Shown in pieces: positions 1 to 39,322 of a stretch of 39,322 nucleotides of DNA. Below the pieces are notes generated by a model that made no database searches, was not told the DNA's origin, and was given only the letters and a program-made list of their open reading frames with translations. A program made the translations under genes and the position numbers. Every line of letters starts with the position of its first letter. The stretch's first letter is position 1. Location: the IMG/VR virus record IMGVR_UViG_3300022661_000031; one strand, written 5' to 3'. The DNA is from a virus.

Positions 1-101
1 GCACAAGTTTTTCAACCTTCAGCTCCTGGACGACGGCGGCCAGGGCGGCGCTGGCAATGGCCAGGGCGGCAACGCCGGATCTGGCAACGGCGGCCAGGCA
101 G
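1..101. repeat. Terminal overlap, identical to 39222..39322
   Basis: Read directly: gcacaagtttttcaacc...ggcggccaggcag is present at both ends. Confidence 0.97.
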
Positions 102-625
102 GAAACGCCGGGAACAATGGCGGCAACAACGGCGCCAGCTACAGCTTCCAGCAGGCCGAAGAAATTGCAAACGCCCGCGCCTCTCGTGCTGAGAGGGCTG
201 CGCTCGCTTCCTACTTCCAGCAGCAGGGACTCAGCGAGGAGCAGATCAACCAGGCAATCGCAGACTATAAGGCCCAGCAGGCAGCGCAGAGGCCCAACGT
301 GGACGCCATCACCAAGGAGCGCGACGACGCTCGCGCTGAACTGGCCGCTCTGAAGAATGGCCAGAAGCTCACCCAGCTGGGAGTCCGTCCTGAGTTCTCT
401 CGCTTCGTTCTCTCTGAGATCGACGCCCTGATGAAAGAGGACAGCAAGCTGGACTTCGACAAGGCTGCGGCCAAGTTCCTGAAGGACAACCCGCAGTATA
501 AGACTGGGAACAGTTCCTACCGCGTAAAAACTGGCACTGATGGCTCCGGAGCTGGCAGCTCCGGCGATAAGGGCAACGCCTTCATCAACGACGCCATCCG
601 CAGAGCTGCGCGGAAATCTTTCTAA
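2..625 (+). CDS. Scaffolding protein, 3' part
   Basis: Frame is open from nt 2 with no stop before the listed 299..625 ORF. Gly/Asn/Gln-rich stretch followed by a charged helical region. Lies directly upstream of the major capsid gene. Confidence 0.75.
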   Translation, partial: HKFFNLQLLDDGGQGGAGNGQGGNAGSGNGGQAGNAGNNGGNNGASYSFQQAEEIANARASRAERAALASYFQQQGLSEEQINQAIADYKAQQAAQRPNVDAITKERDDARAELAALKNGQKLTQLGVRPEFSRFVLSEIDALMKEDSKLDFDKAAAKFLKDNPQYKTGNSSYRVKTGTDGSGAGSSGDKGNAFINDAIRRAARKSF

Positions 626-2843: not shown

Positions 2844-3269
2844 ATGGTCAAGTCAATCATCGAGGGCGTCGCTGACTTCTTCAAGGACTGCCCTCTCCTC
2901 AGTGCCGGAGTGTTCCGCGTGGACGCCCTGGGAGACGAGCCGCAGGAGTACACCATCGAGACCGGGATCTTCAACCCGATCATCGAGACGTACATCGACG
3001 GCAGCTCCGACCGGCGCTACCAGTTCAACTTCGGCAGCCGGGAGTATTACAGCATGGACCGGCTCCAGAACATCGCCAACAGCACCTTCTACGAGGACTT
3101 CGCCAACTGGGTCGAAGCTCAGGAGGCTGCCGGCAATTTCCCGGAGCTGCCGGAAGGTATGCACCCGGAACAGCTCAGCGTGCTCTCGTCTGGCTATATG
3201 TTCGACGAGTCCATGAGGAACGCACGCTACCAGATCCAGTTAGAACTCATCTATCACAAGGAGGCATAA
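2844..3269 (+). CDS. Head-tail joining / tail terminator-like protein
   Basis: 141 aa with RBS aaggagg. Last gene before the tail tube gene. Confidence 0.5.
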   Translation: MVKSIIEGVADFFKDCPLLSAGVFRVDALGDEPQEYTIETGIFNPIIETYIDGSSDRRYQFNFGSREYYSMDRLQNIANSTFYEDFANWVEAQEAAGNFPELPEGMHPEQLSVLSSGYMFDESMRNARYQIQLELIYHKEA

Positions 3270-3273
3270 GCAC

Positions 3274-3840
3274 ATGAAAAAGTTCAATCTCCAGCTCTTT
3301 GACGAGAGCCGTGCCGCCCTGCTTCGCAACGCCATCGCGGACTATGCCGAGATCGACGGCGTCTTCGAGCTCATGGGCACCGGCTTCACGACTCTGGATG
3401 AGAGCCCCAACGCACAGACCGACAGCGAGACCTACATCAACGAGAGTACCGCGTCCACTGACATCACCGGCTACGAGACGGAGTTCTCCTATGAGTCCCG
3501 TCTGATCCCTTCCCAGAAGGCGATCTACAAGCTCTGGAAGATGGGCCGCGACCATGCGACCGGCACTGACGCCCAGCTGAAGTACGTCCGCGTCGAGCTG
3601 TTCAACCCTGTCGGCGAGCCCTCTGAGGCTGCTGCCGAATACACCGCCCGCCTGTTCACCGTGGCCAATGAGGTCAGCGACAACTCCGGCGCCGGCGGCG
3701 AGAAGATCAGCGTCTCCGGCGTGCTGCACGCTGTCGGCGATCCTATCCAGGGCAAGTTCGACACCGTGGCCAAGAAGTTCACGGCCGGCGACTTCAAGGG
3801 CAAGTACGACACCGCAGCAACTCCTGCGGCTCAGTCCTAA
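3274..3840 (+). CDS. Major tail (tube) protein carrying an L27-like N-terminal motif
   Basis: 188 aa. Lies between the head-tail genes and the chaperone/tape-measure genes. N-terminus MKKFNLQLFDE. Followed by a strong terminator. Confidence 0.7.
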   Translation: MKKFNLQLFDESRAALLRNAIADYAEIDGVFELMGTGFTTLDESPNAQTDSETYINESTASTDITGYETEFSYESRLIPSQKAIYKLWKMGRDHATGTDAQLKYVRVELFNPVGEPSEAAAEYTARLFTVANEVSDNSGAGGEKISVSGVLHAVGDPIQGKFDTVAKKFTAGDFKGKYDTAATPAAQS

Positions 3841-3935: not shown

Positions 3936-3966
3936 ATAACACCGACCAATGGAGGAAAACAGAATA

Positions 3967-4371
3967 ATGGAATTGATCATTAACAACGTCAAGCTCGAAG
4001 GCGACCTGATGGACGCCGACTTCATGGAGAAGTTCGAGACCGCGATGATTAAAATGCGCGACACGGCTCAGCAGAAAAGAAGCGAGAACTTCCCGACCGC
4101 TGCGGCCAACTACCGCGCACAGTGCGAGGTGGTCAACACCTGCTTCGACGAGATCTTCGGCGCCGGCACGGCTGCCAAGCTGTTCGGCGGCAAGATGAAC
4201 GTCATGGAGCACCTGAAGGCCATCGAGAAGGTGAGCGACTGGGCTGCCGGAGAACGCAAGACCCTGAACGACTTCACCAACCGCTACACCCAGCGCCAGC
4301 AGAACGCCGTCCGTAATATGCAGACCGCGCAGTTCGTCTCTCAGAAGCACGGCAAGGGTAAAAAGCACTGA
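3967..4371 (+). CDS. Tail assembly chaperone (gpG-like)
   Basis: ATG at 3967 sits 9 nt after ggagga. The track start at 3949 lies inside that RBS. Position is immediately upstream of the tape measure module. Confidence 0.6.
   Translation: MELIINNVKLEGDLMDADFMEKFETAMIKMRDTAQQKRSENFPTAAANYRAQCEVVNTCFDEIFGAGTAAKLFGGKMNVMEHLKAIEKVSDWAAGERKTLNDFTNRYTQRQQNAVRNMQTAQFVSQKHGKGKKH
4357..4365 (+). promoter_or_regulatory. Candidate -1 slippery site GGU AAA AAG for a chaperone G-T fusion
   Basis: The -1 frame opens only at 4362, after TAA at 4359-4361, and the 0 frame stops at 4369-4371. Any fusion must therefore form within the AAAAAG run. Confidence 0.4.
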
Positions 4372-4376
4372 ATTTA

Positions 4377-5012
4377 TTGATCGACGGCCTGCCGGAACAG
4401 GTCGAGATCGCGGGCCAGATGGTCCCGATCAGCAGTGACTTCCGGACGGGGATCCTGTTCGAGGAAGTGCTGCAAGACCCAGGGCTCGATGATCTGGAGA
4501 AGCTCCAGACCGCCCTGCACCTGTATTTCCCCGGCGTCGTCTTCGATTATGACGTGCTCGATGAAGCACTCGGCAAGCTGGTCTGGTTTTATCGCTGCGG
4601 CACGGATCCCGCAGAGACGACGGGCGAAACGTCCGGCGCCGCCGACGAGGACCCGCCCTTCTCCTACGAGCACGACGCTGATTATATTTATTCCGCGTTT
4701 ATGCAGGCCTACGGCCTGGATCTGGCGCGGCATCCCCTCCACTGGTGGCAGTTCCGAGCCCTCTTTAGATCGCTCCCTGAAGACACGCAGCTGGTCAAAA
4801 TCATCGGCTACCGCACGATGAAGATCCCGGCCAAGATCTCCAAGGAGCAGCGGCAGCACTATGAGCATCTGAAGCGCGTCTATGCGCTCCCTCAGTCGGC
4901 TGACCGTCAGCAGCTCGAAAGTGACCTTAACAAACTACTTATGAACGGCGGCAACCCTGCCGCACTTTTGAATGGTAGCGAGGTACGGTCATGGCATCAG
5001 ATGGAACCCTAA
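4377..5012 (+). CDS. Gp15-like tail protein, possibly the T part of a gpGT-like frameshift product
   Basis: 211 aa. Has only a TTG start and no Shine-Dalgarno sequence. Product starts IDGLPEQVEIAGQMVPISSDFRTGILFEE. Lies in the -1 frame relative to the upstream chaperone. Confidence 0.6.
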   Translation: MIDGLPEQVEIAGQMVPISSDFRTGILFEEVLQDPGLDDLEKLQTALHLYFPGVVFDYDVLDEALGKLVWFYRCGTDPAETTGETSGAADEDPPFSYEHDADYIYSAFMQAYGLDLARHPLHWWQFRALFRSLPEDTQLVKIIGYRTMKIPAKISKEQRQHYEHLKRVYALPQSADRQQLESDLNKLLMNGGNPAALLNGSEVRSWHQMEP

Positions 5013-7660: not shown

Positions 7661-8577
7661 CAGTAAACACATTAACCATCGAGCTGACCTGCAACGGCAA
7701 GACCCTCAGAATGGGCCCGGGCGAGGACATTGACATCACTGCCGTGTCCGGCCTGGAGTCCTCCGAGGTGGAGATCAGCACATCAGACAACGCCCTGGTG
7801 GACGGGGCGTCTGTCGATGGCAAGAAGATCAAACCGAGGCCGATCCACATCGAGGCCAGCTTCAGAAGCAACAAGAACAACCCGGAAAACCGGGCCAAAG
7901 TAATCAAGTTTTTCAATCCGAAGTACACCGGCAAGGCGCTCATCACCAACATGGGCGTCAGCCGCAACATCGAGTACGAGCTGGAGGGCTGGACCTTCGC
8001 AGCATCGAAGAACATGGACAGCAAGCTGAAGATCCTGGTGGATCTGATCTGTCCGGACCCTTATATGCTCAATGTGGACAACTTCGGCAAGAACATGGCG
8101 AACATCACGCCGTTGTTCTCTTTCCCCTGGATCTCCCTCAGCAAGAGGATGGAGACGGGCAAGCTGGACTACAAGCCGGAAGCCCGTGGCCTTCTCCTGG
8201 GCGGCAACACTGCCGGCTATAGAACGCTGAAGAAGGAGGTCGTGCTGAGCAACGACGGAGACGTCCCGACTGGCGTCCAGATCCAGTTCATCGCGACCAG
8301 GGGCACCGTGGTCAACCCTAAGATCACAAACACCGGCACGGGCCAGTTCATGCGCGTGAATGTCACGATGCAGACCGGCGACGTGCTTCTCATCGACACC
8401 AACGACCGGCACCAGGTCATCACTCTGAACGGCGTCAACTACTACCAGCACATCGACCGCCGGAGTGAGCCCTTCAAGCTGGACGTGGGCGACAACTATC
8501 TGGAGTACGACGCGGATGGGAACTACACCAACCTGGACGTCAATCTGTTCTACACTCCGAAATATCTGGGGGTGTAA
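7657..8577 (+). CDS. Distal tail protein (Dit-like)
   Basis: 306 aa. ATGA overlap with the tape measure stop. First gene after the tape measure gene. Confidence 0.65.
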   Translation: MTVNTLTIELTCNGKTLRMGPGEDIDITAVSGLESSEVEISTSDNALVDGASVDGKKIKPRPIHIEASFRSNKNNPENRAKVIKFFNPKYTGKALITNMGVSRNIEYELEGWTFAASKNMDSKLKILVDLICPDPYMLNVDNFGKNMANITPLFSFPWISLSKRMETGKLDYKPEARGLLLGGNTAGYRTLKKEVVLSNDGDVPTGVQIQFIATRGTVVNPKITNTGTGQFMRVNVTMQTGDVLLIDTNDRHQVITLNGVNYYQHIDRRSEPFKLDVGDNYLEYDADGNYTNLDVNLFYTPKYLGV

Positions 8578-10680: not shown

Positions 10681-11652
10681 ATGCAGATTGACGTAACAAA
10701 CGGCAAACGCTTCACCGAGTACGACGCGCTGGCTGCCGTGGCCAGCGAGGAGGACGTTCTCCTGGTACGACTCGCAGACGGCACAGGCGTCAAGAGGATC
10801 CCCCTCAGCGCCATCAAGGCCTTCATCAACGGAGACCTGACCACGCTGGAGACTGAGGACCAGACCAGCCTGATCGCCGCCATCAATGAAGTCCTCGGCC
10901 TGGCAGGCACCAACGCCGACGACATCAAAGCCCTGAAGGGGCTGACCGCAATGCTCGGCCAGACCGGTGCATCCAGAGCCAACTCCTTCATCTACGAGCA
11001 CAGCCTCGGCACCAGCTTCACCGCCGAGCAGTCCGCCGACATCCGTGCCGGCAAGTTCGAGCTGGTCCGCACCGGCGGCTACTGGACCATCAACGGCCGC
11101 AAATACTGGGCCGCCCATGCAGACTACCGTCTGAACTGCGGCGACACAGCGCTGACCACTCACCATATGCTGGTCATCCCCGACAAGTCCTTCTATAACC
11201 ACGTTATGAACGACGCCAACGACACGACCGGCTCCTACTACGGCAGCAAGATGAAGACCTCCGGCCTGGCTGATGCTCTGGCCACCATCAAGGCCGACTT
11301 CGGCGCGGATCACATCCTGACCCACAGGATCATCCTGCCCAACGCTGTCAGCAACGGCGCCAGCTCCGGCTGGGCGTGGTACGACAGCCAGATCGACCTG
11401 ATGAACGAGAAGATGGTCTACGGCTCCCACGCATGGGGTGGCGGCTCCCAGAACGGCTACGACACCGGCATCGACAAGAGCCAGCTGGCTCTGTTCCAGG
11501 CACGCCCGGACCTGATCACGAACAGAGAGAACTGGTGGCTGAGAGACGTCCAGTCCGCGGCGCCTTTCTGCGGTGTCTCCGGCCACGGCGGTGCCTACTC
11601 CTGGGCCGCCTCGACCTCCATCGGCGTCCGCCCGGCTTTCCTGATCTATTGA
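10681..11652 (+). CDS. DGR target protein 1: tail fibre / receptor-binding protein with a C-terminal variable region
   Basis: 323 aa. The C-terminus WWLRDVQSAAPFCGVSGHGGAYSWAASTSIGVRPAFLIY is encoded by VR1. Confidence 0.85.
   Translation: MQIDVTNGKRFTEYDALAAVASEEDVLLVRLADGTGVKRIPLSAIKAFINGDLTTLETEDQTSLIAAINEVLGLAGTNADDIKALKGLTAMLGQTGASRANSFIYEHSLGTSFTAEQSADIRAGKFELVRTGGYWTINGRKYWAAHADYRLNCGDTALTTHHMLVIPDKSFYNHVMNDANDTTGSYYGSKMKTSGLADALATIKADFGADHILTHRIILPNAVSNGASSGWAWYDSQIDLMNEKMVYGSHAWGGGSQNGYDTGIDKSQLALFQARPDLITNRENWWLRDVQSAAPFCGVSGHGGAYSWAASTSIGVRPAFLIY
11547..11640 (+). repeat. DGR variable region VR1
   Basis: 94 bp, aligns without gaps to TR 12265-12358. 19 mismatches, all at TR adenines. 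Confidence 0.9.
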
Positions 11653-11660
11653 TCAAAAAT

Positions 11661-11681
11661 CCCGGCCCCTTGTGGGCCGGG
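11661..11681 (+). promoter_or_regulatory. GC hairpin downstream of VR1 (candidate DGR target-recognition structure)
   Basis: Stem cccggccc / gggccggg with loop cttgt, starting 21 nt after the VR end. No U-run follows it. Confidence 0.6.
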
Positions 11682-11708
11682 TAAATCTAATCAAGGAGAT
11701 AAGATAGC

Positions 11709-12236
11709 GTGTCAGACATCCCTAAAAGTAAACGGGCCCATTCTAATCTGGAAGCGCACCACCAGGCTCTCGCAGTCCGTCGGATGATCTCCGTGGAGCT
11801 GCTCAGCAGCTTCGCCTACAGCGAGAAGAAGCTGGAGGCGGCCATCAAGAAGCAGACCGCGCACATCCAGGACCCGGAGCACAAGAAGGACGTCGCCGAG
11901 GCCATCCGCAGCCTGGAGAACGACTACGCCTGCTGGTTTATCAAGAGACACCGCGACCGAGTGGACGATCTCGCCTGCGCCATCGCTCAGCACATCAGGG
12001 CGGCCAATACCATCTGGCCCTCCTACCGTGTCGAGTACCTGGACAGACGCGACGAGCTCAACCAGGCGCTGAAGTGCTGCAACCAGCTCCAGGACGAGCT
12101 CCAGTACATCGCCGAGGCGCTGCCGGCTGACAAAAACCGGTATATGAACATCGTGCTCGAAGTCGAGAAGCTGTTCAACATGGTGAAGAAGCTCCGGCAG
12201 TCCGACAACCGCTTCCTGAAGCACCTGAAAGATTAA
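11709..12236 (+). CDS. avd: DGR accessory variability determinant (Avd-like helical bundle protein)
   Basis: 175 aa, basic and helical, with a GTG start 10 nt after aaggag. Lies between the target gene and TR, as in canonical DGRs. Confidence 0.6.
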   Translation: MSDIPKSKRAHSNLEAHHQALAVRRMISVELLSSFAYSEKKLEAAIKKQTAHIQDPEHKKDVAEAIRSLENDYACWFIKRHRDRVDDLACAIAQHIRAANTIWPSYRVEYLDRRDELNQALKCCNQLQDELQYIAEALPADKNRYMNIVLEVEKLFNMVKKLRQSDNRFLKHLKD

Positions 12237-12264
12237 CACCCTATAGGGTGGCCTCTGTTTGTGC

Positions 12265-12358
12265 CGTCCAGTCCGCGACGAATTTCTGCAATGTCAACAA
12301 CAACGGCAATGCCAACAACTGGAACGCCTCGAACTCCATCGGCGTCCGCCCGGATTTC
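12265..12358 (+). repeat. DGR template repeat (TR)
   Basis: 94 bp containing 24 adenines, many in AAC codons (would translate ...NFCNVNNNGNANNWNASNS...). It is the A-rich parent of VR1 and VR2. Confidence 0.9.
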
Positions 12359-12496
12359 ACAACCGCACTACATTCTACGGGCAAGCTCCCGCGTGCGGCT
12401 ATGGGAAAGGAGAGGCCATCCGTCCAGCGGGATCAGCTGGTAAATGCTAACCAGGACGCTCCCGGTTACGACCGATGGGGCTATCGCGTGGTTTTT

Positions 12497-13798
12497 ATGA
12501 ATGTATTTTATGATGCAAATTTAATATACGACGCCGGCACCAAGGCCATGAAAAGCAGCAAATTCAAACGCAGCACGCAGATGTTCGAGATGACGCAGCT
12601 CCTCACCACGGCCCACATCCGGCGCGACTTTATGAGCGGAGACTACCGCCCAGACCCCGGGAACAAGTTCCCGATCAACGAGCGCGGGCATCAGCGCTTT
12701 ATCACCAGCAACACCATGGTGGACAAGACCGTCAACCACCTCTTTTGTGACGAGGTCCTGACGCCGGCGATCAGCAAGTACCTGATCTACGACAACGGCG
12801 CCTCGCAGAAGGACAAGGGCGTGGCCTTCCACCGCCGGCGCTTCGAGGCTCACCTGCACCAGTATTACATGGAGCACGGATCCAACGAGGGCTACATCCT
12901 GCTGGTGGACTATTCTGGCTATTATGCCAACATCCCGCACGACAAGTGCATCGAGGTCCTCGACTACTTTCTGGAGCGCGAGGTCGAAGATCCGGAGACG
13001 CTGCTGATCTCTGAGATGCTGACGCGCCTGATCTTCAAGACCTTCGAGCAGGACGTCTCCCGCTTCTCCGACGAGGAGATCGCGGCCATGATGGCCGGCA
13101 AGGTCAACCCGATGCTCAACTGCGGCGTGGATCCGGAGCTGCTGACCGGCGAGAAGATGCTCAGGAAGGGCGTGGACATAGGCTCGCAGCCTTCCCAGAA
13201 CATCGGCATCATCTACCCGTACCGGGTGGACAACTATGCCAAGATCGTCAGAGGCATCAAACACTACGCCCGCTACACCGACGACTTCTATGCGGTCTCA
13301 GACTCCAAGGAGTTCCTGGTGAGCGTGCTGGAAGGCTTCAGGAAGGAGGCGGCAGAGTATGGGCTGATCATCAACGAAAAGAAGACCCGGATCGTGAAGC
13401 TCTCCTCTCAGTTCAGACACCTGCAGGTGTGCTACTCACTGACGGAGTCCGGCCGCCTGATCCGGAAGATCCACCCGAAGAACATCACCCGGGAACGCCG
13501 GAAGCTGAAGGCGTACAAGCGCCTGCTGGACGCCGGCCGGATCGACTACCCAACCGTCGAGAACTCGTTCAAGTCCTGGCTGGGCAGTCACTACAAAATT
13601 ATGTCACACGACCAAATCTACAACATGAGCAGCCTCTACTATGAGCTGTTCGGAAGGAGACCAAAATGGAAAAAAGGACATGGAAGATTACACTGGCTGA
13701 TGGCACATCCCTCGACGGCCTCGACCTCAACGGGAACAACTTCATCAGCTCCACCGCTGTCACCGAGGACACCTTCGCCGGCAAACTCTCCAGCGTGA
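12497..13798 (+). CDS. DGR reverse transcriptase
   Basis: Start MNVFYDANL. Contains the catalytic motif RYTDDFYAV and the DGR-type motif IGSQPSQNIG. Lies immediately downstream of TR. Confidence 0.85.
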   Translation: MNVFYDANLIYDAGTKAMKSSKFKRSTQMFEMTQLLTTAHIRRDFMSGDYRPDPGNKFPINERGHQRFITSNTMVDKTVNHLFCDEVLTPAISKYLIYDNGASQKDKGVAFHRRRFEAHLHQYYMEHGSNEGYILLVDYSGYYANIPHDKCIEVLDYFLEREVEDPETLLISEMLTRLIFKTFEQDVSRFSDEEIAAMMAGKVNPMLNCGVDPELLTGEKMLRKGVDIGSQPSQNIGIIYPYRVDNYAKIVRGIKHYARYTDDFYAVSDSKEFLVSVLEGFRKEAAEYGLIINEKKTRIVKLSSQFRHLQVCYSLTESGRLIRKIHPKNITRERRKLKAYKRLLDAGRIDYPTVENSFKSWLGSHYKIMSHDQIYNMSSLYYELFGRRPKWKKGHGRLHWLMAHPSTASTSTGTTSSAPPLSPRTPSPANSPA

Positions 13799-14456: not shown

Positions 14457-14897
14457 ATGAAAACTGGAATTTGCACAGCAGTGGGAGTCGTGGGCGGCTT
14501 CATCGCCAACCTTTTCGGAGGCTGGGACGCAGCTCTGACCACGCTCCTGATCTTCATGGGCGTGGACTACGTCACCGGCCTCGTCGTCGCCGGCGTGTTC
14601 CACAAGTCCCAGAAGTCCGCAGACGGCGCCTTGGAGAGTCGCGCCGGCTGGAAGGGCCTCTGCCGTAAAGGCACGACTCTCCTGGTGGTGCTGGTAGCCT
14701 GCCGCCTCGATCTGGTCACGGGCTCCACATTCATCAGAGACGCGACGATCATCGCCTTCATCGCCAACGAGACGCTCAGCATTATCGAGAACGCCGGCCT
14801 GATGGGCGTGCCTATCCCTGCCATCGTGGTGAAAGCCATTGACATCCTGAAACAGAAGGCAGAGGGCGACGCTAACACCAGCCCCGGCAAGGAGTAA
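14457..14897 (+). CDS. Holin (phage holin family 4 / toxin-secretion holin type)
   Basis: 146 aa with several hydrophobic segments, including FMGVDYVTGLVVAG and ANETLSIIENAG. Directly upstream of the endolysin gene. Confidence 0.8.
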   Translation: MKTGICTAVGVVGGFIANLFGGWDAALTTLLIFMGVDYVTGLVVAGVFHKSQKSADGALESRAGWKGLCRKGTTLLVVLVACRLDLVTGSTFIRDATIIAFIANETLSIIENAGLMGVPIPAIVVKAIDILKQKAEGDANTSPGKE

Positions 14898-14900
14898 GCC

Positions 14901-16352
14901 ATGAAGGCGACAGGGTCCTCCACTGAGAGGACCATCTGGAACTATTTCCGCTGCAAAGGTTTCAGCCCGGCCGGTGTGGCCGGGCTGATGGGCAACCTCT
15001 ACGCCGAGAGCGGGCTCAATCCGATAAACCTCCAGAACACCTACGAGAAGCGCCTGGGCCTCACGGACGCCGAGTACACGGCCGCCGTGGACTCCGAGAG
15101 CTACTCCAACTTCGTCCGCGACAGCGCCGGCTACGGCCTCGCGCAGTGGACATACTGGAGCCGCAAGGAGGCCATGCTCAACTACGCCCGGAAGACCGGC
15201 GCGTCCATCGGCGACCTGATGATGCAGCTCGACTTCATGTTCCAGGAGCTGAAGGGCTACGTGGCCGTCTTCCAGGTGCTCCGGACAGCCCGGACCGTGA
15301 AGGAGGCGTCCGACATCGTGCTGACCAAGTACGAGCGCCCGGCCGACATGAGCAACGCCGTCAAGGTAAAGCGGGCCGGCTTCGGCCAGGCATACTATGA
15401 CGCCTACGCAAACACTACAGCAACCCCAGAGAAGGAGGAGATCACCATGAGCAACAGCCCTCTGGTAACGTACACCAACATCACCAAGAACAAGACCAGC
15501 CCCCGCAACCACGCCATCGACACCATCACGATCCACTGCATCGTGGGCCAGTGGACGGCGAAGCAGGGCTGCGACTACTTCGCCACTACCGACCGCGAGT
15601 GCTCCGCCAACTATGTCGTCGGCAAGGATGGCTCCATCGGTCTGTCCGTCGATGAGGCAGATCGCTCCTGGTGCACTTCCAGCCGCGAGAACGACAACCG
15701 CGCCATCACCATCGAAGTCGCCAGCGACACCGAGCACCCCTACGCCGTGACCGACGCAGCCTACGCCGCACTGATCAAGCTGGTGGCCGACATCTGCAAG
15801 CGCAACGGCATCAAGAAGCTGGTCTGGTCCACCAACAAGACCGACCGCGTCAACCACGCCAACGGCTGCAACATGACCGTGCACCGCGACTACGCCAACA
15901 AGGCCTGCCCGGGCCAGTACCTCTACGACCGCCACGGTGCCATCGCTGCGGCCGTCAATGAGATCCTGGGCTCCGGCACTACCCAGGCACCGGAAGCGGC
16001 TCCGGAGCCCGTCCAGGGCTTCCCTGCGACGCCCTTCACTGTCCGCGTCATCATTCCGGATCTGAACTACCGCAAGGGCCCCGGCATGAGCTACGCGGTC
16101 AGAGGCCAGACCGGCAAGGGCGTCTTCACCATCACCGAGGTGCAGGACGGCTGGGGCAAGCTGAAAAGCGGCGCCGGCTGGATCTACCTCGAAAATCCTG
16201 ACTACTGCACCATCCAGGGCGTCGCAGCAAAGCCGGCCGAGCCGGATCCTGCCGACGTGCTGGCGCAGGAGATCGCCGGCAAGGTGAAGGGCTCCGGCCT
16301 GGATCCCGCTGACGTTCTGAACAGGACCAAGAAGATCCTGGGCGTGGCATGA
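14901..16352 (+). CDS. Three-domain endolysin: N-terminal lysozyme-like domain, amidase_2 (PGRP-type) domain, C-terminal SH3-like wall-binding domain
   Basis: GLMGNLYAESGLNP...YGLAQWT at the N-terminus; ITIHC...HRDYANKACPG in the middle; FTITEVQDGWGKLKSGAGWIY at the C-terminus. Confidence 0.85.
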   Translation: MKATGSSTERTIWNYFRCKGFSPAGVAGLMGNLYAESGLNPINLQNTYEKRLGLTDAEYTAAVDSESYSNFVRDSAGYGLAQWTYWSRKEAMLNYARKTGASIGDLMMQLDFMFQELKGYVAVFQVLRTARTVKEASDIVLTKYERPADMSNAVKVKRAGFGQAYYDAYANTTATPEKEEITMSNSPLVTYTNITKNKTSPRNHAIDTITIHCIVGQWTAKQGCDYFATTDRECSANYVVGKDGSIGLSVDEADRSWCTSSRENDNRAITIEVASDTEHPYAVTDAAYAALIKLVADICKRNGIKKLVWSTNKTDRVNHANGCNMTVHRDYANKACPGQYLYDRHGAIAAAVNEILGSGTTQAPEAAPEPVQGFPATPFTVRVIIPDLNYRKGPGMSYAVRGQTGKGVFTITEVQDGWGKLKSGAGWIYLENPDYCTIQGVAAKPAEPDPADVLAQEIAGKVKGSGLDPADVLNRTKKILGVA

Positions 16353-16468: not shown

Positions 16469-17977
16469 TTATACGGCAATTCTGAGGACGACATAGTCCC
16501 GCAGCACGATGATCTTCGGGGTTCGAGTACCGTCGCGCGGGCTCCACCATTCGGGCCGTACTCGAACACGTGAGTGCGGGCCCTTTTCTCGGATATTGTA
16601 AAATATCAGCGCCTCATCGTTGCGGAGCTCGACTCGGGCGATGAACGTGTCAACCAACCGAGCGCGGAAGTCGTCATCCGTGACGTCTCCGACGCGGAAG
16701 GAGCGCAGCCAGGCCTCGACCACCTCATGGGTGAGTCGGGGCCTTTTTATTTCTGCCCGCTGGATCTCCAGCACCAGCTGCTCCTCCTCTTCCTCCAGGG
16801 CAGCCAAACGAGAGACCAGGCCACGGGCCCCGCCTTCTTCTATCGCGTCCAGCAAGTTCCGCTGGCGCTTTTTATTTGAGTCAAGACGCCGACGCAATCC
16901 CACCACGGGATCGTCGGCGTTTTCCTGTTCCTGGACTTCCAGGATCCGGACGGTCAGCTTCTCGATCATGTCATCGGTCAGCATATCGTTCACCGTGGCC
17001 AGGATGATCGCGTCCTCCAGCTGGTCCTTCGGGAACGGCTTCAGCTCGCAGGCCTTCCCGCGCTTTTTGTCTCCGCACTTGTAATACCGGTACACTTTCC
17101 CCAGCTTCCCGGTGCCGGTCTCTGCATTGATCATCGAGCCGCAATACCCGCAGAACATTTTACAGCTCAGCAAATAGTTCACCTTCGCCCTCCCCGCCGC
17201 ATTGTTACGGCTCGTTTTGAAATGCTGGGCCGCCTCCAAGAAGGTCGCCTGGTCAATGATCGGCTCCACATTCAGCTTCACGTCCTGGATGTAAAACTCG
17301 CCCAGGTATTTGTTATTCCGCAGCATACGATAGACGACCGCATTGGAGACCGGCTTCCCGCGTCTGCCCATGATCCCACGGTCGGCAAACATCTGGACGA
17401 TGTCCCGGAGCTGGCCGCCGGCGATGTGCATCCGGAAGGCCTCCCGGACAGCGGCAGCCTCTCGCTCGTCGACGATGATGTGACGCTCGGCGTCCACCTT
17501 GTAACCGATGGGCAGAGACTGGCCGCAATACTGGCCCTTCTTCGCGGTCTCCTTCATGCCTCGGATGACCTTCTGCCGGAGGTCGGCGGAGTAATACTCG
17601 GCCAGACCTTCCAGAACGCTCTCCAGGATGATCCCCTCCGGGCCCTCCGGGACGCTTTCCTTCGCATACAGCAGTTTGACGCCGGAGCGCTTCAGAGTCA
17701 GCTTGCCGAGGGCGATGTCCTGGCGATCACGGCCGAAGCGGTCGATCTTCCAGACGATGACGCAGTCAAAGCGGCCCTTCTCAGCGTCCCGCAGCATCCG
17801 CTGGAACTCGTCACGGCCGACGACACTCTTGCCGGAGACTTTCCGGTCGGCATACACTTCGATGATGTCGATCCCGTTCTCCTCTGCATAATATTTACAA
17901 TCTGCCACCTGGCCCTCGATGGACTGCTCAGTCTGCCGGGGGCCTGGTGAGTATCTGGCATAAATAACGCCACGCAT
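16469..17977 (-). CDS. int: Large serine recombinase (integrase)
   Basis: 502 aa. N-terminal resolvase domain (GVIYARYS...GQ), recombinase domain, Cys-rich zinc ribbon (CGYCGS...YYKCG) and a C-terminal coiled coil. Confidence 0.9.
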   Translation of the reverse strand: MRGVIYARYSPGPRQTEQSIEGQVADCKYYAEENGIDIIEVYADRKVSGKSVVGRDEFQRMLRDAEKGRFDCVIVWKIDRFGRDRQDIALGKLTLKRSGVKLLYAKESVPEGPEGIILESVLEGLAEYYSADLRQKVIRGMKETAKKGQYCGQSLPIGYKVDAERHIIVDEREAAAVREAFRMHIAGGQLRDIVQMFADRGIMGRRGKPVSNAVVYRMLRNNKYLGEFYIQDVKLNVEPIIDQATFLEAAQHFKTSRNNAAGRAKVNYLLSCKMFCGYCGSMINAETGTGKLGKVYRYYKCGDKKRGKACELKPFPKDQLEDAIILATVNDMLTDDMIEKLTVRILEVQEQENADDPVVGLRRRLDSNKKRQRNLLDAIEEGGARGLVSRLAALEEEEEQLVLEIQRAEIKRPRLTHEVVEAWLRSFRVGDVTDDDFRARLVDTFIARVELRNDEALIFYNIREKGPHSRVRVRPEWWSPRDGTRTPKIIVLRDYVVLRIAV

Positions 17978-23071: not shown

Positions 23072-23620
23072 ATGTCTACTACCAAAGTTATCACCGGAAA
23101 AGTTCGTTTCAGCTATGTGAACATCTTCAAGAGCCGCGCCTTCCAGGCTGGCCAGGACGCCAAGTACAGCGTGTGCCTGCTGATCCCTAAAGAGGACAAG
23201 GCCACCATCAAGAAGATCAAGGCAGCCATCGACGCAGCTGTCCAGGACGGCATCAGCTCCAAGTGGGGCGGCAAGAAGCCTGCCAACCTGAAGCTGCCCC
23301 TGCGCGACGGCGACGCCGAACGTGCCGACGAGGCTCCTGAGTACGAGGGGATGTACTTCCTCAACTGCAACAGCACCCAGAAGCCCGGCATCGTGGACAA
23401 GGATCTGAACGAGATCCTGGATCCCGACGAGGTCTACTCCGGCTGCTGGGGCCGTGCCTCCATCAACTTCTTCCCCTTCAACACCAACGGCAACAAGGGC
23501 ATCGGCGTCGGCCTGAATAACATCCAGAAGCTGAAGGACGACGACCGCCTGGGCGCTGCCCGTGCTTCCGCCGAGTCCGACTTCGGCGGCGACGACTTCG
23601 AGGACGACGAGGACTTCTAA
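23072..23620 (+). CDS. DUF2815-type phage ssDNA-binding protein
   Basis: N-terminus VITGKVRFSYVNIF and acidic C-terminal tail DDFEDDEDF. Lies between the nuclease and polymerase genes. Confidence 0.7.
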   Translation: MSTTKVITGKVRFSYVNIFKSRAFQAGQDAKYSVCLLIPKEDKATIKKIKAAIDAAVQDGISSKWGGKKPANLKLPLRDGDAERADEAPEYEGMYFLNCNSTQKPGIVDKDLNEILDPDEVYSGCWGRASINFFPFNTNGNKGIGVGLNNIQKLKDDDRLGAARASAESDFGGDDFEDDEDF

Positions 23621-23633
23621 GGAGGACATACAG

Positions 23634-25607
23634 ATGCACCGAGTTATGGGCGTGGATATAGAAACCTATAGCTCCGTGGATCTGACCGAGGCGGGCGTCT
23701 ACGCCTACGTGGAGGCGCCTGACTTCGACATCCTGCTCATCTCGTACATCTTCGACGACTGGGGCGAGGACGACGTCAAGACCATCGACTGCTTCGATGC
23801 TGATCCTGACATGATGGCCGAGTTCTGCGAGGCCCTCCTCGATCCCCAGATCGTCAAGACCGCCTTCAACGCGAACTTCGAGCGCACCTGTCTGGCCAAG
23901 TGGCTCCAGAAGCCCATGCCGCCAGAGGAGTGGCGCTGCACAATGGTCAAGGCGCTGACGCTGGGCCTGCCGGGCAATCTGGCAGGCGCCGGCGAGGCGC
24001 TGGGCCTTCCTCCCGAGAAGCTAAAGGACCCCCAGGGCAAGGCCCTGATCCAGTTCTTCTCGAAGCCGTGCAAGCCGACCCGGACCAACGGCCAGAGGAC
24101 GCGCAACCTCCCGCAGCATGACCCGGCCAAGTGGCAGCTCTACAAGGGCTACAACCGGCAGGACGTCGTGACCGAGCAGGAGATCCTACGGAAGCTATCC
24201 ATCTACAAGACACCGGAGTCAGAGCAGGAGCTCTGGGCTCTGGACCAACACATGAACGACAACGGCGTGGCGCTCGACATCCCCATGGTCGAGAAGATCG
24301 TCGAGTATGACACCCGGCGCCGGCAGGAGCTCCAGGAGGAAGCCCAGGAGCTCACCGGACTGAAAAACCCGAACAGCCTGGCCCAGCTGAAGCGCTGGCT
24401 CGCAGAGCAGGGCGTGGAGATGACCAGCGTCACCAAGGACACCATCGCCGAGGCGCTGCGAGATCCGGAGCTCCCAGACGTCGTCCGGAGAGTGCTGGAG
24501 ATCCGCACCGCCCTGGGCAAGACCAGCGTGGCCAAGTACAGCACGATGCTGGTGGCACACTGCCAGGATCACCGGCTGCGAGGCATCCTTCAGTTCTACG
24601 GCGCCAACCGATCCGGGCGCTGGGCCGGCCGCCTGGTGCAGACGCACAACCTGGCCAAGAACACGCTGCCGGATCTGGCTCTGGCCCGCGAGCTGGCGGC
24701 CGAGGGAGACTTCGAGACCATGGGCACCCTGTTCGGCGAGACGGCCTTCGTCTTCTCCGAGCTGATCCGGACGGCCTTCATCCCATCCGAGGGCTGCCGC
24801 TTCATCGTCTCCGACTTCTCCGCCATCGAGGCGCGAGTCCTGGCATGGCTCGCCGGCGAGGAGTGGGTCCTGGAAGCCTTCCGCAACGGCAAGGACATCT
24901 ACTGCGAGACCGCCTCCATGATGTACCACGTGCCCGTGGAAAAGCACGGAGCCAACAGCCACCTCCGCCAGAAGGGCAAGGTCGCCGTGCTGGCCTGCGG
25001 CTACCAGGGCGGCGTCGGTGCCATGAAGCGCATGGACAAGGGCGGCAGCATACCGGAGGACGAGCTCCAGAGCGTCGTGGACCAGTGGCGGCAGGCTAAC
25101 TCCAACTCCGTGAAGCTCTGGAGGACCTGCGAGCTGGCAGCGCGGACAGCCATCGAGGAGCACCGCACCGTCCGGCTGAAGAACGGCCTGGCCTTCGGCT
25201 ACATCAACGGCAACCTGTTCATCAAGCTGCCGGGCGGCCGGAAGCTCTGCTACTGGAACACCCGGCTGAAGCTCGACCCCCGCGACGGCCGCGAGCACAT
25301 TGTCTACATGGGCGTCAACCAGGAGACGAAACAGTGGGGCGAGACCGAGACCTACGGCGGCAAGCTGGTCGAGAACATCGTCCAGGCCACCGCCAGAGAC
25401 TGCCTGGCCATCTCTATGCAGAGGGTCGCAGCTCTGGGCTACAACATCGTCATGCACGTCCATGACGAGATCATCGTGGACTGTCCCATCGAGGACACCG
25501 GCGCCATGGAGAGGATCAACGCCTGCATGGCTGAGCCTATCCCCTGGGCGCCTGGTCTGCCTCTGAAGGGCGACGGCTACGAGACACCATTCTACATGAA
25601 AGACTAA
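23634..25607 (+). CDS. Family A DNA polymerase with a 3'-5' exonuclease domain
   Basis: ATG at 23634 after ggagga. Contains GVDIETYS (Exo I motif), RQKGKVAVLACGYQGG and VHDEIIVDC (motif C). Confidence 0.9.
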   Translation: MHRVMGVDIETYSSVDLTEAGVYAYVEAPDFDILLISYIFDDWGEDDVKTIDCFDADPDMMAEFCEALLDPQIVKTAFNANFERTCLAKWLQKPMPPEEWRCTMVKALTLGLPGNLAGAGEALGLPPEKLKDPQGKALIQFFSKPCKPTRTNGQRTRNLPQHDPAKWQLYKGYNRQDVVTEQEILRKLSIYKTPESEQELWALDQHMNDNGVALDIPMVEKIVEYDTRRRQELQEEAQELTGLKNPNSLAQLKRWLAEQGVEMTSVTKDTIAEALRDPELPDVVRRVLEIRTALGKTSVAKYSTMLVAHCQDHRLRGILQFYGANRSGRWAGRLVQTHNLAKNTLPDLALARELAAEGDFETMGTLFGETAFVFSELIRTAFIPSEGCRFIVSDFSAIEARVLAWLAGEEWVLEAFRNGKDIYCETASMMYHVPVEKHGANSHLRQKGKVAVLACGYQGGVGAMKRMDKGGSIPEDELQSVVDQWRQANSNSVKLWRTCELAARTAIEEHRTVRLKNGLAFGYINGNLFIKLPGGRKLCYWNTRLKLDPRDGREHIVYMGVNQETKQWGETETYGGKLVENIVQATARDCLAISMQRVAALGYNIVMHVHDEIIVDCPIEDTGAMERINACMAEPIPWAPGLPLKGDGYETPFYMKD

Positions 25608-36069: not shown

Positions 36070-37514
36070 ACATTTTCGAGTATTTCAAAAAGAAGGGCAT
36101 CGACACCATCGACAGCTCCTTCTACAGCAAGATCACCATGTGGGACAGCTGGTACAGGGCGAACGTCAAACGCTTCCACCAGTACCGCGTCTATCATGGC
36201 GCCGGGCAGTATGAGCGCTGCCATCGCAAGAGTCTCGGCATGGCCAAGAAGATCTGCGAGGACATCAGCGACCTGCTGCTCAATGAGAAGGTCCGCATCA
36301 CCATCAAGGACGCACCCACGGCCAAGTATGTCGGCAGCGTCCTGAACGCTGCGAACTTCTCCGTGCAGGGCAACGAGTACCAGGAGCGCAAGGCTGCCTG
36401 CGGCACCGTGGCCTATGTGCCCTATCTGACCAACATGGAGCTGGACGATCAGGGCCGCATCATCAGCGCCGACGTCAAAATCGACTATGTGGTAGCGAAG
36501 AACATCTTCCCGACCGCATGGGAGAACTCCAGGATCACGGAGTGCATCTTCGTGTTCGCCAAGACCTACCGCCGCAAGAAGTACGCCCAGTTCCAGCACC
36601 ACAAGCTGGAGCCCTGGCAGGACGAGAACGGCGAGGATCTGGGCTACCAGTACGTCATCGAGAACAGCGTCGTGGAGTGCAGCTCCGGCGCCGGCCGTGA
36701 GCTGACGCCTGCCGAGTGGAATGAGATCCCGCACTTCGAGGGCTTGGCTGCCAGAGTCGAGACCGGCTCCAACCTGCCCCAGTTTGTCATCGACAAGCTG
36801 AACATCGCGAACAACGTGGACGAGGACGACACCAATCCGATGGGCGTGTCGCTTTTTGCCAACAGCATCGACGTCCTGGCCAAGATCGACCTGGAGTACG
36901 ACAGCTATGCCAACGAGTTCACCCTCGGCCGCAAGCGCGTCTTCGTGGCGCCTGAGATGCTGACCGACGCCAACGGCTCCCAGGTATTTGATCCGGACGA
37001 CAGCGTCTTCTACACGCTGCCGGAGGACTACTTCAAGAACACCAAGGAAGCCATGCACGAGGTCAACATGGAGCTGAGGATCGAGGAGCATGAGACCGCC
37101 ATCAACAACGATCTCAACCTCCTGAGCTTCAAGTGTGGCTTCGGCACTCAGTATTATCGCTTCGAGAAGGGCGCGGTCGCTACGGCCACCCAGGTCATCA
37201 GCGAAAACTCCGATATGTACCGCACGATCCAGAAGCACGAGATCATCCTCCGGGATGCTCTCACCGATCTGATCCGCATCATCATCCGCCTGGGCAAAGC
37301 TGCCAACGTGGGCGAGCTGGTGGAGAACACCGACATCGTGATCGACTTCGACGACTCCATCATCGAAGACAAGCAGACGGAAAGAGCCGAGGACCGCAAG
37401 GACGTCGCCATGGGCGCCATGGGCCTGCCGGAGTACCGCGCGAAGTGGTACGGCGAGACGGAGGAGGTCGCAGCCAGCAAGCTGCCTGACCAGTCCGCCG
37501 GCGTTCTGATGTAA
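36066..37514 (+). CDS. Portal protein (SPP1 gp6-like)
   Basis: 482 aa. ATGA overlap with terL. Canonical position. Confidence 0.85.
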   Translation: MNIFEYFKKKGIDTIDSSFYSKITMWDSWYRANVKRFHQYRVYHGAGQYERCHRKSLGMAKKICEDISDLLLNEKVRITIKDAPTAKYVGSVLNAANFSVQGNEYQERKAACGTVAYVPYLTNMELDDQGRIISADVKIDYVVAKNIFPTAWENSRITECIFVFAKTYRRKKYAQFQHHKLEPWQDENGEDLGYQYVIENSVVECSSGAGRELTPAEWNEIPHFEGLAARVETGSNLPQFVIDKLNIANNVDEDDTNPMGVSLFANSIDVLAKIDLEYDSYANEFTLGRKRVFVAPEMLTDANGSQVFDPDDSVFYTLPEDYFKNTKEAMHEVNMELRIEEHETAINNDLNLLSFKCGFGTQYYRFEKGAVATATQVISENSDMYRTIQKHEIILRDALTDLIRIIIRLGKAANVGELVENTDIVIDFDDSIIEDKQTERAEDRKDVAMGAMGLPEYRAKWYGETEEVAASKLPDQSAGVLM

Positions 37515-38839
37515 TGGATCAGAGCTACCACGACCTACTGGCCGCCGGCGTCGAGAAGCGCTTCCGGGACCTGGAGATGGCGATCATGGACGACATCATC
37601 CGCCGGATCCGGAAGGCCGGCACAATCACCGACTCGGCCGACTGGCAGATCCAGCGCCTCATCATCCTGGGCAACAGCACCCAGGACATCGAGGACCTGA
37701 TCAGGAAGGCCGTGGATGGAAACGAGGAGGAAGTCCGCCGGCTCTACGCTGAGGTCATCGAGCGGGAATACACCCGCGACCGCAGCCTCTACGAGCAGAT
37801 CGGCAAGGAGTTCATCCCCTACGAGTTAAACCCCGAGCTCCAGCAAATCACGGACGCCCTGGTGCAGCAGTCCAGCGAGGAGCTCTACAACATCACCAAG
37901 AGCACCGGCTTCATGCTGGACAACGGCCACGGCGGGAAAGTTTTCACGCCCCTGGCCGATGTCTACAACGGCTACCTGGACGACGCCATCACCGGCATGG
38001 CCAACGGCGCCTACGACTACAACACGCTGGTCCGCCGTATGGTCAGCCAGATGACAGCCTCCGGGCTCCGGACCGACCACGCCTTCAGCGATGGCGGCAG
38101 CGACTACGGCGTGGACTACGCCAGCGGCTGGCACAATCGCGTGGACGTGGCCGCCCGTCGTGCTCTGCTCACTGGCTTCGGCCAGCTCACCGGTCACGTC
38201 ACGGATCTGAACGCCCAGCGGCTGGGGACCGACTACTTCGAGGTCACATGGCACGCCGGAGCTCGTCCGGATCACGCTGCATGGCAGGGCAAGGTCTACA
38301 CCAAGGAGCAGCTGACGACCAAGTGCGGCCTGGGCACCGGTCCGGGCCTGCTGGGCTGGAACTGCCGCCACACCTACTACCCCTTCATCCCCGGAGTGAG
38401 CGAGCGGCTCTACACCGACGAATGGCTGGAGGAGCAGAACGCCAGGGAGAACACTCCGCGCCGCTTCCGTGGCAAGGAGTACACCACCTACGAGGCCACC
38501 CAGAAGCAGAGGCAGATGGAGACGGCCATGAGGGCCCGGCGTGAGCAGGTGCAGCTCCTTCGTGCCGGAGGGGCTGACAAGGAAGACATCACCATCGCCC
38601 AGTGCAAGTACCAGGCCCAGCTGGAGCAGTATCGCAGCTTCTCGAAGGCGATGGGCCTGGAGGAGCAGACGGAGCGCATCTACACGGGACGCACTCCGGG
38701 CAGGATCTCACCGAGCCCGCAGGTCTACGCGCAGTGGCAAGCCGAGCAGGCAGCCAAAGCGGCCAACCGTGCGAAGGAACGCGCCGAGAAGCAGCGCAGA
38801 GCGGCCCAGGACGCCGCTCAGAAGGGAGCAAGCACATGA
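37514..38839 (+). CDS. Head morphogenesis protein (SPP1 gp7 / Mu F-like)
   Basis: 441 aa containing VTWHAGARPDHAAWQGKVY...GWNCRH. Confidence 0.8.
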   Translation: MDQSYHDLLAAGVEKRFRDLEMAIMDDIIRRIRKAGTITDSADWQIQRLIILGNSTQDIEDLIRKAVDGNEEEVRRLYAEVIEREYTRDRSLYEQIGKEFIPYELNPELQQITDALVQQSSEELYNITKSTGFMLDNGHGGKVFTPLADVYNGYLDDAITGMANGAYDYNTLVRRMVSQMTASGLRTDHAFSDGGSDYGVDYASGWHNRVDVAARRALLTGFGQLTGHVTDLNAQRLGTDYFEVTWHAGARPDHAAWQGKVYTKEQLTTKCGLGTGPGLLGWNCRHTYYPFIPGVSERLYTDEWLEEQNARENTPRRFRGKEYTTYEATQKQRQMETAMRARREQVQLLRAGGADKEDITIAQCKYQAQLEQYRSFSKAMGLEEQTERIYTGRTPGRISPSPQVYAQWQAEQAAKAANRAKERAEKQRRAAQDAAQKGAST

Positions 38840-39129
38840 TCAACATCCACGTCGATGAGAACAGCATAACCGTCACAGGGCACGCTGAGCGGCCTGCTGG
38901 CGTGCCTCCCGGCAATAACATCATCTGCGCGGCCGTGTCTTCGGTCACGCTGACACTGATCGAGGGGCTGCGGCAGATCGCCGGCCTCCAGATCGAGGCC
39001 ACCACCGAGCCCGGCGACGTCCGGATCAGCTGGTCCAGGATGAACGACATCGGCAAGGCCTTGATCGACACCTGGCTGCTGGGGATCTACGGGATCCAGG
39101 GCAGCTATGGAAATATTACAATAGTTTAA
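38836..39129 (+). CDS. prp: Prp-type cysteine protease (ribosomal-processing protease family, DUF464)
   Basis: ATG at 38836 with an ATGA overlap. 97 aa. His/Cys dyad context TGHAE...GNNIICAAVSS matches the Prp GHA...[IV]CAA[VG]S pattern. Confidence 0.8.
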   Translation: MINIHVDENSITVTGHAERPAGVPPGNNIICAAVSSVTLTLIEGLRQIAGLQIEATTEPGDVRISWSRMNDIGKALIDTWLLGIYGIQGSYGNITIV

Positions 39130-39148
39130 GCGCCGCGAGGCGCTTTTA
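39128..39148 (+). terminator. Rho-independent terminator after prp
   Basis: Stem aagcgcc / ggcgctt with loop gcga, followed by tttatt. Confidence 0.6.
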
Positions 39149-39219
39149 TTATGGGCAGACGCCGCTCCCTAAATGCGGCGGGAATGTTCACGACACATCA
39201 CAAAAACGGAGGAATAACA

Positions 39220-39322
39220 ATGCACAAGTTTTTCAACCTTCAGCTCCTGGACGACGGCGGCCAGGGCGGCGCTGGCAATGGCCAGGGCGGCAACGCCGGA
39301 TCTGGCAACGGCGGCCAGGCAG
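39220..39322 (+). CDS. Scaffolding protein, 5' part (continues at nt 2 after circular closure)
   Basis: ATG at 39220 preceded by the RBS ggagga. N-terminus is MHKFFNLQLLDDGG, and the frame is continuous with 2..625. Confidence 0.8.
   Translation, partial: MHKFFNLQLLDDGGQGGAGNGQGGNAGSGNGGQA
39222..39322. repeat. Terminal overlap, identical to 1..101
   Basis: Same 101-nt string as the window start. Confidence 0.97.

Follow-up and report, generated by a model that had tools for sequence, protein, structure and literature searches.

We analysed a 39,322-nucleotide stretch of viral DNA, IMG/VR record IMGVR_UViG_3300022661_000031 (the window), which carries a gene for a 97-aa protease of the Prp family and three structural genes whose products begin with nearly the same N-terminal leader, which resembles the one on ribosomal protein L27. 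A sequence-only reading of this DNA had placed the protease gene (prp) between the gene of a minor capsid protein similar to SPP1 gp7 and that of the scaffolding protein, and this gene order was confirmed. The start codon of prp overlaps the stop codon of the minor capsid gene (ATGA), and a gap of 90 bases lies between prp and the scaffold gene (Table 1). The window is a closed circular contig, with bases 39222-39322 identical to bases 1-101 (a 101-bp terminal overlap), a unique length of 39,221 bases and a G+C content of 60.7%. Because the contig is circular, the scaffold gene is not cut short at the end of the sequence but continues past the junction (39220..39322 joined to 102..625) and yields a 208-aa translation. 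The window is thus a complete genome of about 39.2 kb from a temperate siphovirus that is kin to Acutalibacter phage Fontainebleau.

The 97-aa protein is, by sequence and predicted fold, a cysteine protease of the Prp family (MEROPS C108). Its translation (MINIHVDENSITVTGHAERPAGVPPGNNIICAAVSS...) agrees with the one in which a His/Cys dyad had been recognized from the context GHAE...IICAAVSS, and the hidden Markov model search proposed at that time returned a clear match to the Pfam profile Peptidase_Prp (PF04327), with 47 bits against a gathering cut-off of 27 (E 3e-12) and an alignment that spans profile positions 3-87 of 90. When the window Prp alone was compared with the Protein Data Bank (PDB) using phmmer, we obtained only marginal matches (E 0.03), and a profile of the phage clade, made from 26 homologues, was required to reach the known structures. 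With this profile we recovered the Prps of S. mutans (E 4e-9), S. aureus (4PEO/7KLD, E 2e-6) and S. pneumoniae, as well as TM1457, with the GHA and CAAVS motifs in register. His16 and Cys31 are invariant in the 26 phage homologues and align with the dyads of 4PEO/7KLD, 2G0I and 2IDL. Particularly, the S. aureus residues His22, Gly29, Cys34 and Ser38, which mutagenesis has probed in that enzyme (PMC9261936), correspond to His16, Gly26, Cys31 and Ser35 of the window Prp, and the sole departure among the mapped residues is Asn28 in place of Asp31, a position at which the phage clade has either N or D (Gx[ND]I[VI]CAAV). The AF2 model of the protein has a predicted local distance difference test score (pLDDT) of 91.7, its top 14 Foldseek matches are all Prp structures, and it reaches a template modelling (TM) score of 0.81 both to 7KLD, the S. 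aureus substrate complex, and to 1S12.

The N-termini of the scaffolding protein, the major capsid protein (MCP) and the presumed tail tube protein are exactly those given in the sequence-only reading: MHKFFNLQLL↓DD, MKKFFNLQLF↓DT and MKKFNLQLF↓DE, respectively, where the arrow marks the cut site, here a predicted one. Cleavage would fall before Asp11 in the scaffold, before Asp11 in the MCP and before Asp10 in the tube, where it would expose a conserved N-arm (DESRAALLRN). A GGAGG ribosome-binding site is located 8-9 nt upstream of each of the three ATGs, and the pattern NLQ[LF][FL], for which 0.04 occurrences would be expected in a six-frame translation of the window (78,444 residues), is present three times, always at residues 5-10 of these three genes. 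Moreover, the leader codons differ at synonymous positions (TTT/TTC, AAC/AAT, CTT/CTC and CTC/CTG), which argues that the conservation is at the level of the protein, not of the RNA, and that selection acts on the peptide. The proposal that these leaders mimic the N-terminal extension of Firmicutes L27 is borne out by their match to the published L27 motif, MLxx(D/N)LQ(F/L)F'A (PMC9405229), and to the L27 leaders encoded beside cellular prp genes in Clostridia (MLNMNLQFF↓AHKKG, MIRMNLQLF↓AHKKG and MIRTFNLQLF↓ASKKG), which come from other Clostridia and serve as a proxy for the L27 of the host itself. Across phage substrates, the P1' residue is D in 105 cases, A in 69, T in 24 and E in 16. Two other candidate substrates in the window, one at 13994 (..TALQYF↓V) and one inside the minor capsid protein (..REQVQLL), were rejected because both match the motif poorly and neither has a supported start codon; the second, moreover, begins at an internal Met that is present in all relatives.

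The third leader-bearing product, a 188-aa protein, has no Pfam match and belongs to a family annotated as 'unknown function' (phrog_3099). Its gene occupies the canonical position of a siphovirus major tail protein, in the order tail completion, tube, two chaperones and tape measure, and in homologous contigs the tape measure gene likewise comes after chaperone genes, of the DUF6673 and Phage_Gp15 types. The AF2 model gives a pLDDT >85 for the core and <50 for the leader region (residues 1-19), and the best PDB matches are the tubes of NF5, SPP1 (gp17.1), 80alpha and lambda (gpV), with Foldseek probabilities of 0.87-0.99, E-values of 0.02-0.2 and TM scores of 0.3-0.38. These weak E-values and TM scores arise because the N-arm and a long loop (residues 38-66, modelled with low confidence) are predicted to be disordered. 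In distant Prp-encoding phages, the third leader-bearing protein belongs to the annotated major tail families phrog_820 and phrog_238, the latter being of the TP901-1 / 80alpha / NF5 type. The assignment of the 188-aa protein as the tail tube is therefore supported by synteny, by a statistically weak fold match and by analogy with these leader-bearing families, in line with what the earlier reading had presumed.

The same arrangement recurs in other phages. The nearest cultured phage, Fontainebleau (ON453893), shares about 80% nucleotide identity with the window over the structural module, and encodes a Prp that is 59% identical to that of the window and is annotated only as 'peptidase'. As in the window, all three proteins carry leaders (MKKHFNLQLF↓DD, MKKRFFNLQLF↓DT and MKKKIFDLQLF↓DE). 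The record names neither the leaders nor the identity of the Prp, and the tube is annotated as hypothetical. Unlike that of the window, the Fontainebleau MCP (23224-24477), which is 417 aa long where that of the window has 323, is extended at the C-terminus by about 95 aa; the extra part is rich in Thr, Ser, Gly and Lys, resembles an added decoration domain and is also present in relatives L016, L017 and L092-094. Fontainebleau infects Acutalibacter muris, and a Firmicutes (Clostridia-like) host, as had been suggested, is further indicated by related prophages in Clostridia metagenome-assembled genomes (MAGs). A profile scan of IMG/VR returned at least 221 contigs with a Prp relative, and a scan of GTDB genomes returned at least 272 matches, the nearest of which are prophages in Clostridia MAGs; among the matches listed, these prophages come from Oscillospiraceae, Lachnospiraceae, Christensenellales, Roseburia and Lachnoclostridium, and the more distant ones are cellular prp genes directly followed by the L27 gene (38 such loci). 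Three Prp-bearing contigs were binned as Cryptobacteroides, Senegalimassilia and Bacteroides; they may be mis-binned instead of pointing to hosts outside the Firmicutes.

A survey of relatives for the motif on tail tube proteins had also been called for, and we carried out a census of leaders in 62 phage-context loci with at least 5 kb of sequence downstream of prp, not all of them independent, in which the identity of Prp to that of the window ranges from 27% to 100%. Leaders were present on the scaffold, the MCP and a protein of 150-280 aa encoded where the tube gene is expected in 46 of the 62 loci, on the scaffold and MCP only in 12, on the scaffold only in 3, and on the MCP and a tube-sized protein in 1. 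Distant members bear the leader on non-homologous proteins as well, namely capsids of families phrog_267, 840 and 544 in addition to the two major tail families named above. A second cultured phage, Dorea phage DO134P1 (OP172779), has a prp open reading frame (ORF) at 7448-7711 (-), with the sequence ..ISGHANYAACGQDIICAGVTAL.., that is missing from its GenBank annotation, and leaders on the scaffold (MANLQLF↓AEG), the MCP (..KLGLQVF↓TAP) and a tail protein (..MQGLQVF↓SES).

Several loci depart from the usual arrangement. In the Prp-encoding contig IMGVR_UViG_3300045988_149377 only the tube has a leader (MKQFDLQRF↓ADPELP), and the scaffold-sized and MCP-sized ORFs downstream of prp have none, the reverse of the usual head-tagged pattern. 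In a Lachnospiraceae MAG (CALFCS010000192), the ORF directly after prp bears a leader (MYRMKKLDLQLF↓AEPVTGKKIFYL), but past it resembles phrog_238-type tail proteins and not a scaffold. The Logan contig SRR31320896_19292 has a gene for a 118-aa Prp (4779-5349) that is directly followed by head-tail adaptor genes, with no scaffold or MCP genes, pointing to a deletion, a defective prophage or an assembly error. Finally, a 185-aa protein with an N-terminal Prp domain, in another Lachnospiraceae MAG (CADBNF010000089, 4019-4577), lies near genes that look like dnaX and recR, a context that is neither that of a phage nor that of L27.

The remaining features of the window are those of a temperate siphovirus (Table 1). 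The MCP gene is followed, in this order, by the genes for a head-tail adaptor, a DUF6751-like protein and the tail completion protein. A terminator-like hairpin (AAGCGCC-GCGA-GGCGCTT followed by TTATTATGGG) lies between prp and the scaffold gene, directly 3' of the stop codon of prp. It might part the portal, minor capsid and prp genes from those of the scaffold and capsid, which are highly expressed; the number of terminator-like sites found in 37400-39322, one, is close to chance (shuffle mean 0.7). The large serine recombinase indicates that the phage is temperate. The window also encodes a replication module with a family A DNA polymerase, a VapE-like primase/helicase, an SNF2 helicase, a DUF2800 nuclease and an N6/N4 methylase, and a diversity-generating retroelement in which all 19 of the 19 mismatches between the variable and the template repeat fall at adenines of the template; Fontainebleau has a reverse transcriptase gene too.

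Table 1. Coordinates of the features of the window, in the order of the late genes and then of the other genes.
Feature	Coordinates	Strand	Basis or remark
Minor capsid protein, SPP1 gp7-like (Phage_min_cap2), 441 aa	37514..38839	+	Pfam PF06152 E 8e-104; phrog_581
Prp cysteine protease, 97 aa	38836..39129	+	PF04327; phrog_4478 'peptidase' E 3e-19
Terminator-like hairpin with T-rich tail	39128..39155	+	Consensus scan
Scaffolding protein gene, 5' part	39220..39322	+	phrog_2303 head scaffolding protein E 5e-27; leader 39220-39249
Scaffolding protein gene, circular continuation	1..625	+	Gly/Asn/Gln-rich linker, then helical body
Major capsid protein (MCP), HK97 fold, 323 aa	647..1618	+	PF05065 E 3e-29; phrog_10; leader 647-676
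Tail completion protein	2844..3269	+	phrog_3266 E 7e-41; directly upstream of tube gene
Tail tube (major tail) protein, 188 aa	3274..3840	+	Synteny, weak fold match; leader 3274-3300
Two chaperone-like genes	3949-4371, 4377-5012		Downstream of tube gene
Tape measure gene, 889 aa	4991-7660		After chaperone pair
Diversity-generating retroelement	10681-13798		
ORF with variable repeat at its 3' end	10681-11652		Variable repeat 11547-11640
Template repeat	12265-12358		
Reverse transcriptase ORF	12248-13798		RVT_1; phrog_1423
Holin	14457-14897		
Endolysin/amidase	14901-16352		
Large serine recombinase	16469-17977	-	Resolvase, Recombinase and Zn_ribbon_recom domains

From the sequences of the leaders and of the protease we infer that the leaders are cleaved, and that the agent is the phage Prp rather than that of the host; that the phage enzyme is the principal protease seems to us likely. 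Four of four leader-bearing tube homologues, picked independently of Prp, are in contigs with a Peptidase_Prp between the minor capsid and scaffold genes, and related phages without a Prp (contigs L085-087 and L174, and C. difficile phage phiCD38-2) have no leader on scaffold, MCP or tube. A neighbour-joining tree of 142 non-redundant Prps places every one of the 71 phage-context sequences in a single clade, which contains no L27-linked Prp. Moreover, in several phages the leader is shifted off the L27 consensus jointly across all substrates (NLRMF/NLRMF, DLRLF/DLRLF, NLHIF/NLRIF, LQHF/LQHF and GLQVF/GLQVF), and such concerted shifts argue for the phage enzyme as the cognate protease. The P3 Gln of a substrate is buried in S. 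aureus Prp, where it forms hydrogen bonds with Gly29 and Asp31, and substrates with Ala or Glu at P3 are not cut (PMC9261936). The Prps paired with non-Gln P3 leaders have Asp at the position equivalent to Asp31, although this comparison of Prp columns comprises five sequences from 2-3 lineages, with the discriminating columns confounded by phylogeny.

We nevertheless had to consider that the leaders are removed by the host Prp, and that the phage copy, itself redundant, only raises the enzyme dose in the late burst or else has another target (such as host L27 or FlhB-like proteins). The leaders of the window keep the L27-type P6-P1 sequence FNLQLF with its canonical P3 Gln, which a host Prp could in principle cut; phages 80alpha, TP901-1 and phi13 use the motif without a Prp of their own; and prp is reported in all Firmicutes with a long L27 (PMC12324487). 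Against this stand the association of leaders with phage prp in the sampled lineages, their absence from homologous Prp-less phages and the separate clade of the phage enzymes. Leaders within single phages have drifted to Arg, Lys or His at P3, or to His or Val at P2, on all substrates, whereas Ala or Glu at P3 is enough to stop S. aureus Prp, and P1' in the clade of the window is Asp, Glu or Thr and not the Ala of every L27 leader seen. We therefore regard removal by the host enzyme as unlikely. The canonical P6-P1 residues of the window and the three borrowing phages do count against the phage enzyme as agent, and the Asp at P1', where the L27 leaders all have Ala, is a departure that the protease would have to tolerate, although P1' varies widely among phage substrates. 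To these points should be added that Asn28 sits where S. aureus Prp has Asp31, whose D31A mutant is inactive (PMC9261936), that the Prp tree was built by neighbour joining from short sequences sampled with the phage profile as seed, and that the tube assignment rests on the weak Foldseek E-values given above plus synteny.

Another explanation is that the leader is kept, either as a permanent tag, at which Prp would dock as a chaperone or which would signal assembly, or because it makes the translation of highly expressed late genes more efficient. Strong ribosome-binding sites precede the three genes, all of them highly expressed, a chaperone role of Prp towards L27 has been proposed, and in 80alpha cleavage of capsid and scaffold is dispensable while the scaffold leader is essential (PMC5744158). 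The homologues of the tube speak otherwise. Among the 120 best homologues of the window tube, about 100 have a leader and about 15 are leaderless, starting with MADNSRAALLRN, MASGRTALLRN, MPNTDRKALIRN and the like, that is, 1-5 residues from the predicted scissile bond (..LQLF↓DESRAALLRN); one of these, 80% identical, is from a phage that retains Prp and the leaders of scaffold and MCP. This suggests that the leader is a detachable module and no part of the mature tube, which could therefore do without a tag, and the segment just past the cut is strongly conserved (R13, A15, L16 and R18). In addition, the phage clade keeps the catalytic His/Cys and Ser35 without exception, disorder is predicted for the leader, and its codons differ at synonymous sites, so we consider retention of the leader improbable. 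The idea that the shared N-termini are due to chance or to wrong start codons, for which only the general risk in start-codon choice speaks, is refuted by the motif count, by the GGAGG before each ATG and by the recurrence of the pattern in more than 60 loci (not all independent) and two cultured phages.

Taken together, it is quite probable, judging by the genes and leaders described, that the late operon encodes a self-contained leader-peptidase system. Prp would be made along with the portal and minor capsid proteins, and the scaffold, MCP and tube, the three most abundant self-assembling virion proteins, would be made as precursors that begin with a leader of 9-10 residues, M-(K/H)-K-F-(F)-N-L-Q-L-(F/L), which copies the extension of Firmicutes L27. 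The phage Prp, through His16 and Cys31, would bind the leader at P6-P1 and cut after the final Phe or Leu, exposing the predicted Asp residues at the new N-termini. As to the role of the leader before its removal, we infer by analogy with 80alpha that it probably has a part in folding or assembly and is taken off no later than when the protein enters the virion. A broader hypothesis, which should be approached cautiously as we hold it to be rather doubtful, is that phage Prps make up a large clade of 'private' leader peptidases with an evolution of its own, in which each enzyme changes in step with the tags on the virion proteins of its phage (such as NLQLF, NLRMF, DLRLF, LQHF and GLQVF), insulated from the host Prp and L27, with removal of the tube tag as a checkpoint that licenses tube polymerisation. 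If this were true, Prp would be a general assembly-control protease for head and tail, and the clade would offer a natural set of small (about 97 aa), orthogonal protease/tag pairs.

The system has practical consequences. The protease and three candidate substrates from one 39-kb genome make up a portable test system, considering that E. coli lacks Prp, and its reconstitution would allow a direct test of the assembly role of an L27-like leader, a question left open for 80alpha. The leaders and the Prp clade also provide a rule by which many genes labelled 'hypothetical' or 'peptidase' in the genomes of gut phages can be annotated and mature N-termini predicted, and they bear on proposals to use Prp as an antibiotic target because prophages supply extra, divergent copies of it.

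Host Prp-dependent processing of the capsid and scaffold proteins of phage 80alpha was reportedly described by Wall et al. in 2015. Of the systems known, 80alpha is close to that of the window in its L27-like leader (..NLQFF↓A) on the scaffold and the HK97-fold capsid, in the use of a Prp-family His/Cys protease and in its SPP1-like head module, with portal, gp7-like minor capsid protein, scaffold and MCP. It differs in that it relies on the host Prp, which cleaves its capsid (gp47) and scaffold (gp46) (PMC5744158), whereas the window encodes a phage-clade Prp; in P1', which is Ala there and Asp in the window; and in the tail tube, which is also tagged in the window. In Lactococcus phage TP901-1, we observed that the scaffold Sfp (2975-3637) starts with MEQTELLPLNLQLF↓AEE, similar to the leader of L. 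lactis L27; this phage has no prp gene of its own, and neither its major head protein nor its major tail protein bears a leader. The cellular Prp/L27 pair (rplU-prp-rpmA; PDB 4PEO/7KLD) shares with the window the fold, the dyad, the equivalents of Gly29 and Ser38 and the motif (D/N)LQ(F/L)F. Sequence identity between the enzymes is, however, about 20%, and the window Prp has no ribosomal gene context, has Asn for Asp31 and has virion proteins with an acidic P1' as candidate substrates.

The protease of Streptococcus phage Cp-1 (orf13) is said to have been described by Martin, Lopez and Garcia in 1998, and a phage-encoded C108 protease has thus already been known since that year. It is the only other member of C108 (clan CR) cited in three papers (PMC12445089, PMC9261936, PMC9405229), two of which state that it removes 48 residues from the N-terminus of the major head protein (PMC12445089, PMC9261936). 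Like the window protein, it is a phage-encoded cysteine protease of the Prp family (TGHG...SCARVS) that trims the N-terminus of a major head protein, but Cp-1 is a phi29-like podovirus, its cut site (..INH↓ATV) is unrelated to the L27 motif, and it is not known to act on scaffold or tail proteins. Cp-1 was absent from the three phage records matched by tblastn at E<=1e-3; its protease is very divergent. The sequence-only reading had further proposed that the window would extend Prp-dependent maturation beyond the head. The motif on the tail tube stands, but its priority does not, as the motif was noted in 2017 on the major tail protein of phi13, with the comment that Prp seems tied to 'ribosomes, procapsids and tails' (Kizziah et al. 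2017, PMC5744158). We confirmed that leader in the phi13 sequence (MIEKLKQAPRFLKLNLQHF↓ADTG). Phi13 resembles the window in the L27-like leader on its major tail protein, and is unlike it in having no phage Prp, a conventional head maturation protease, a capsid without a leader and a tail protein of a different family.

Reviews of Prp leave phage-borne Prps unmentioned (PMC9405229, PMC9261936), and we found no description of a phage-encoded Prp with L27-like leaders in the literature searched, a limited collection in which absence is no proof. Each ingredient of the system has a precedent, and it is their combination, a large phage-specific Prp clade linked to leaders of the L27 type that are carried by scaffold, capsid and usually tube, that we found undescribed. 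Work on Prp-dependent maturation has so far been confined to phages of staphylococci relying on the Prp of the host; the loci analysed here point to a widespread, self-contained version in phages of gut Clostridia, in most of which proteolytic control may extend to the tail tube.

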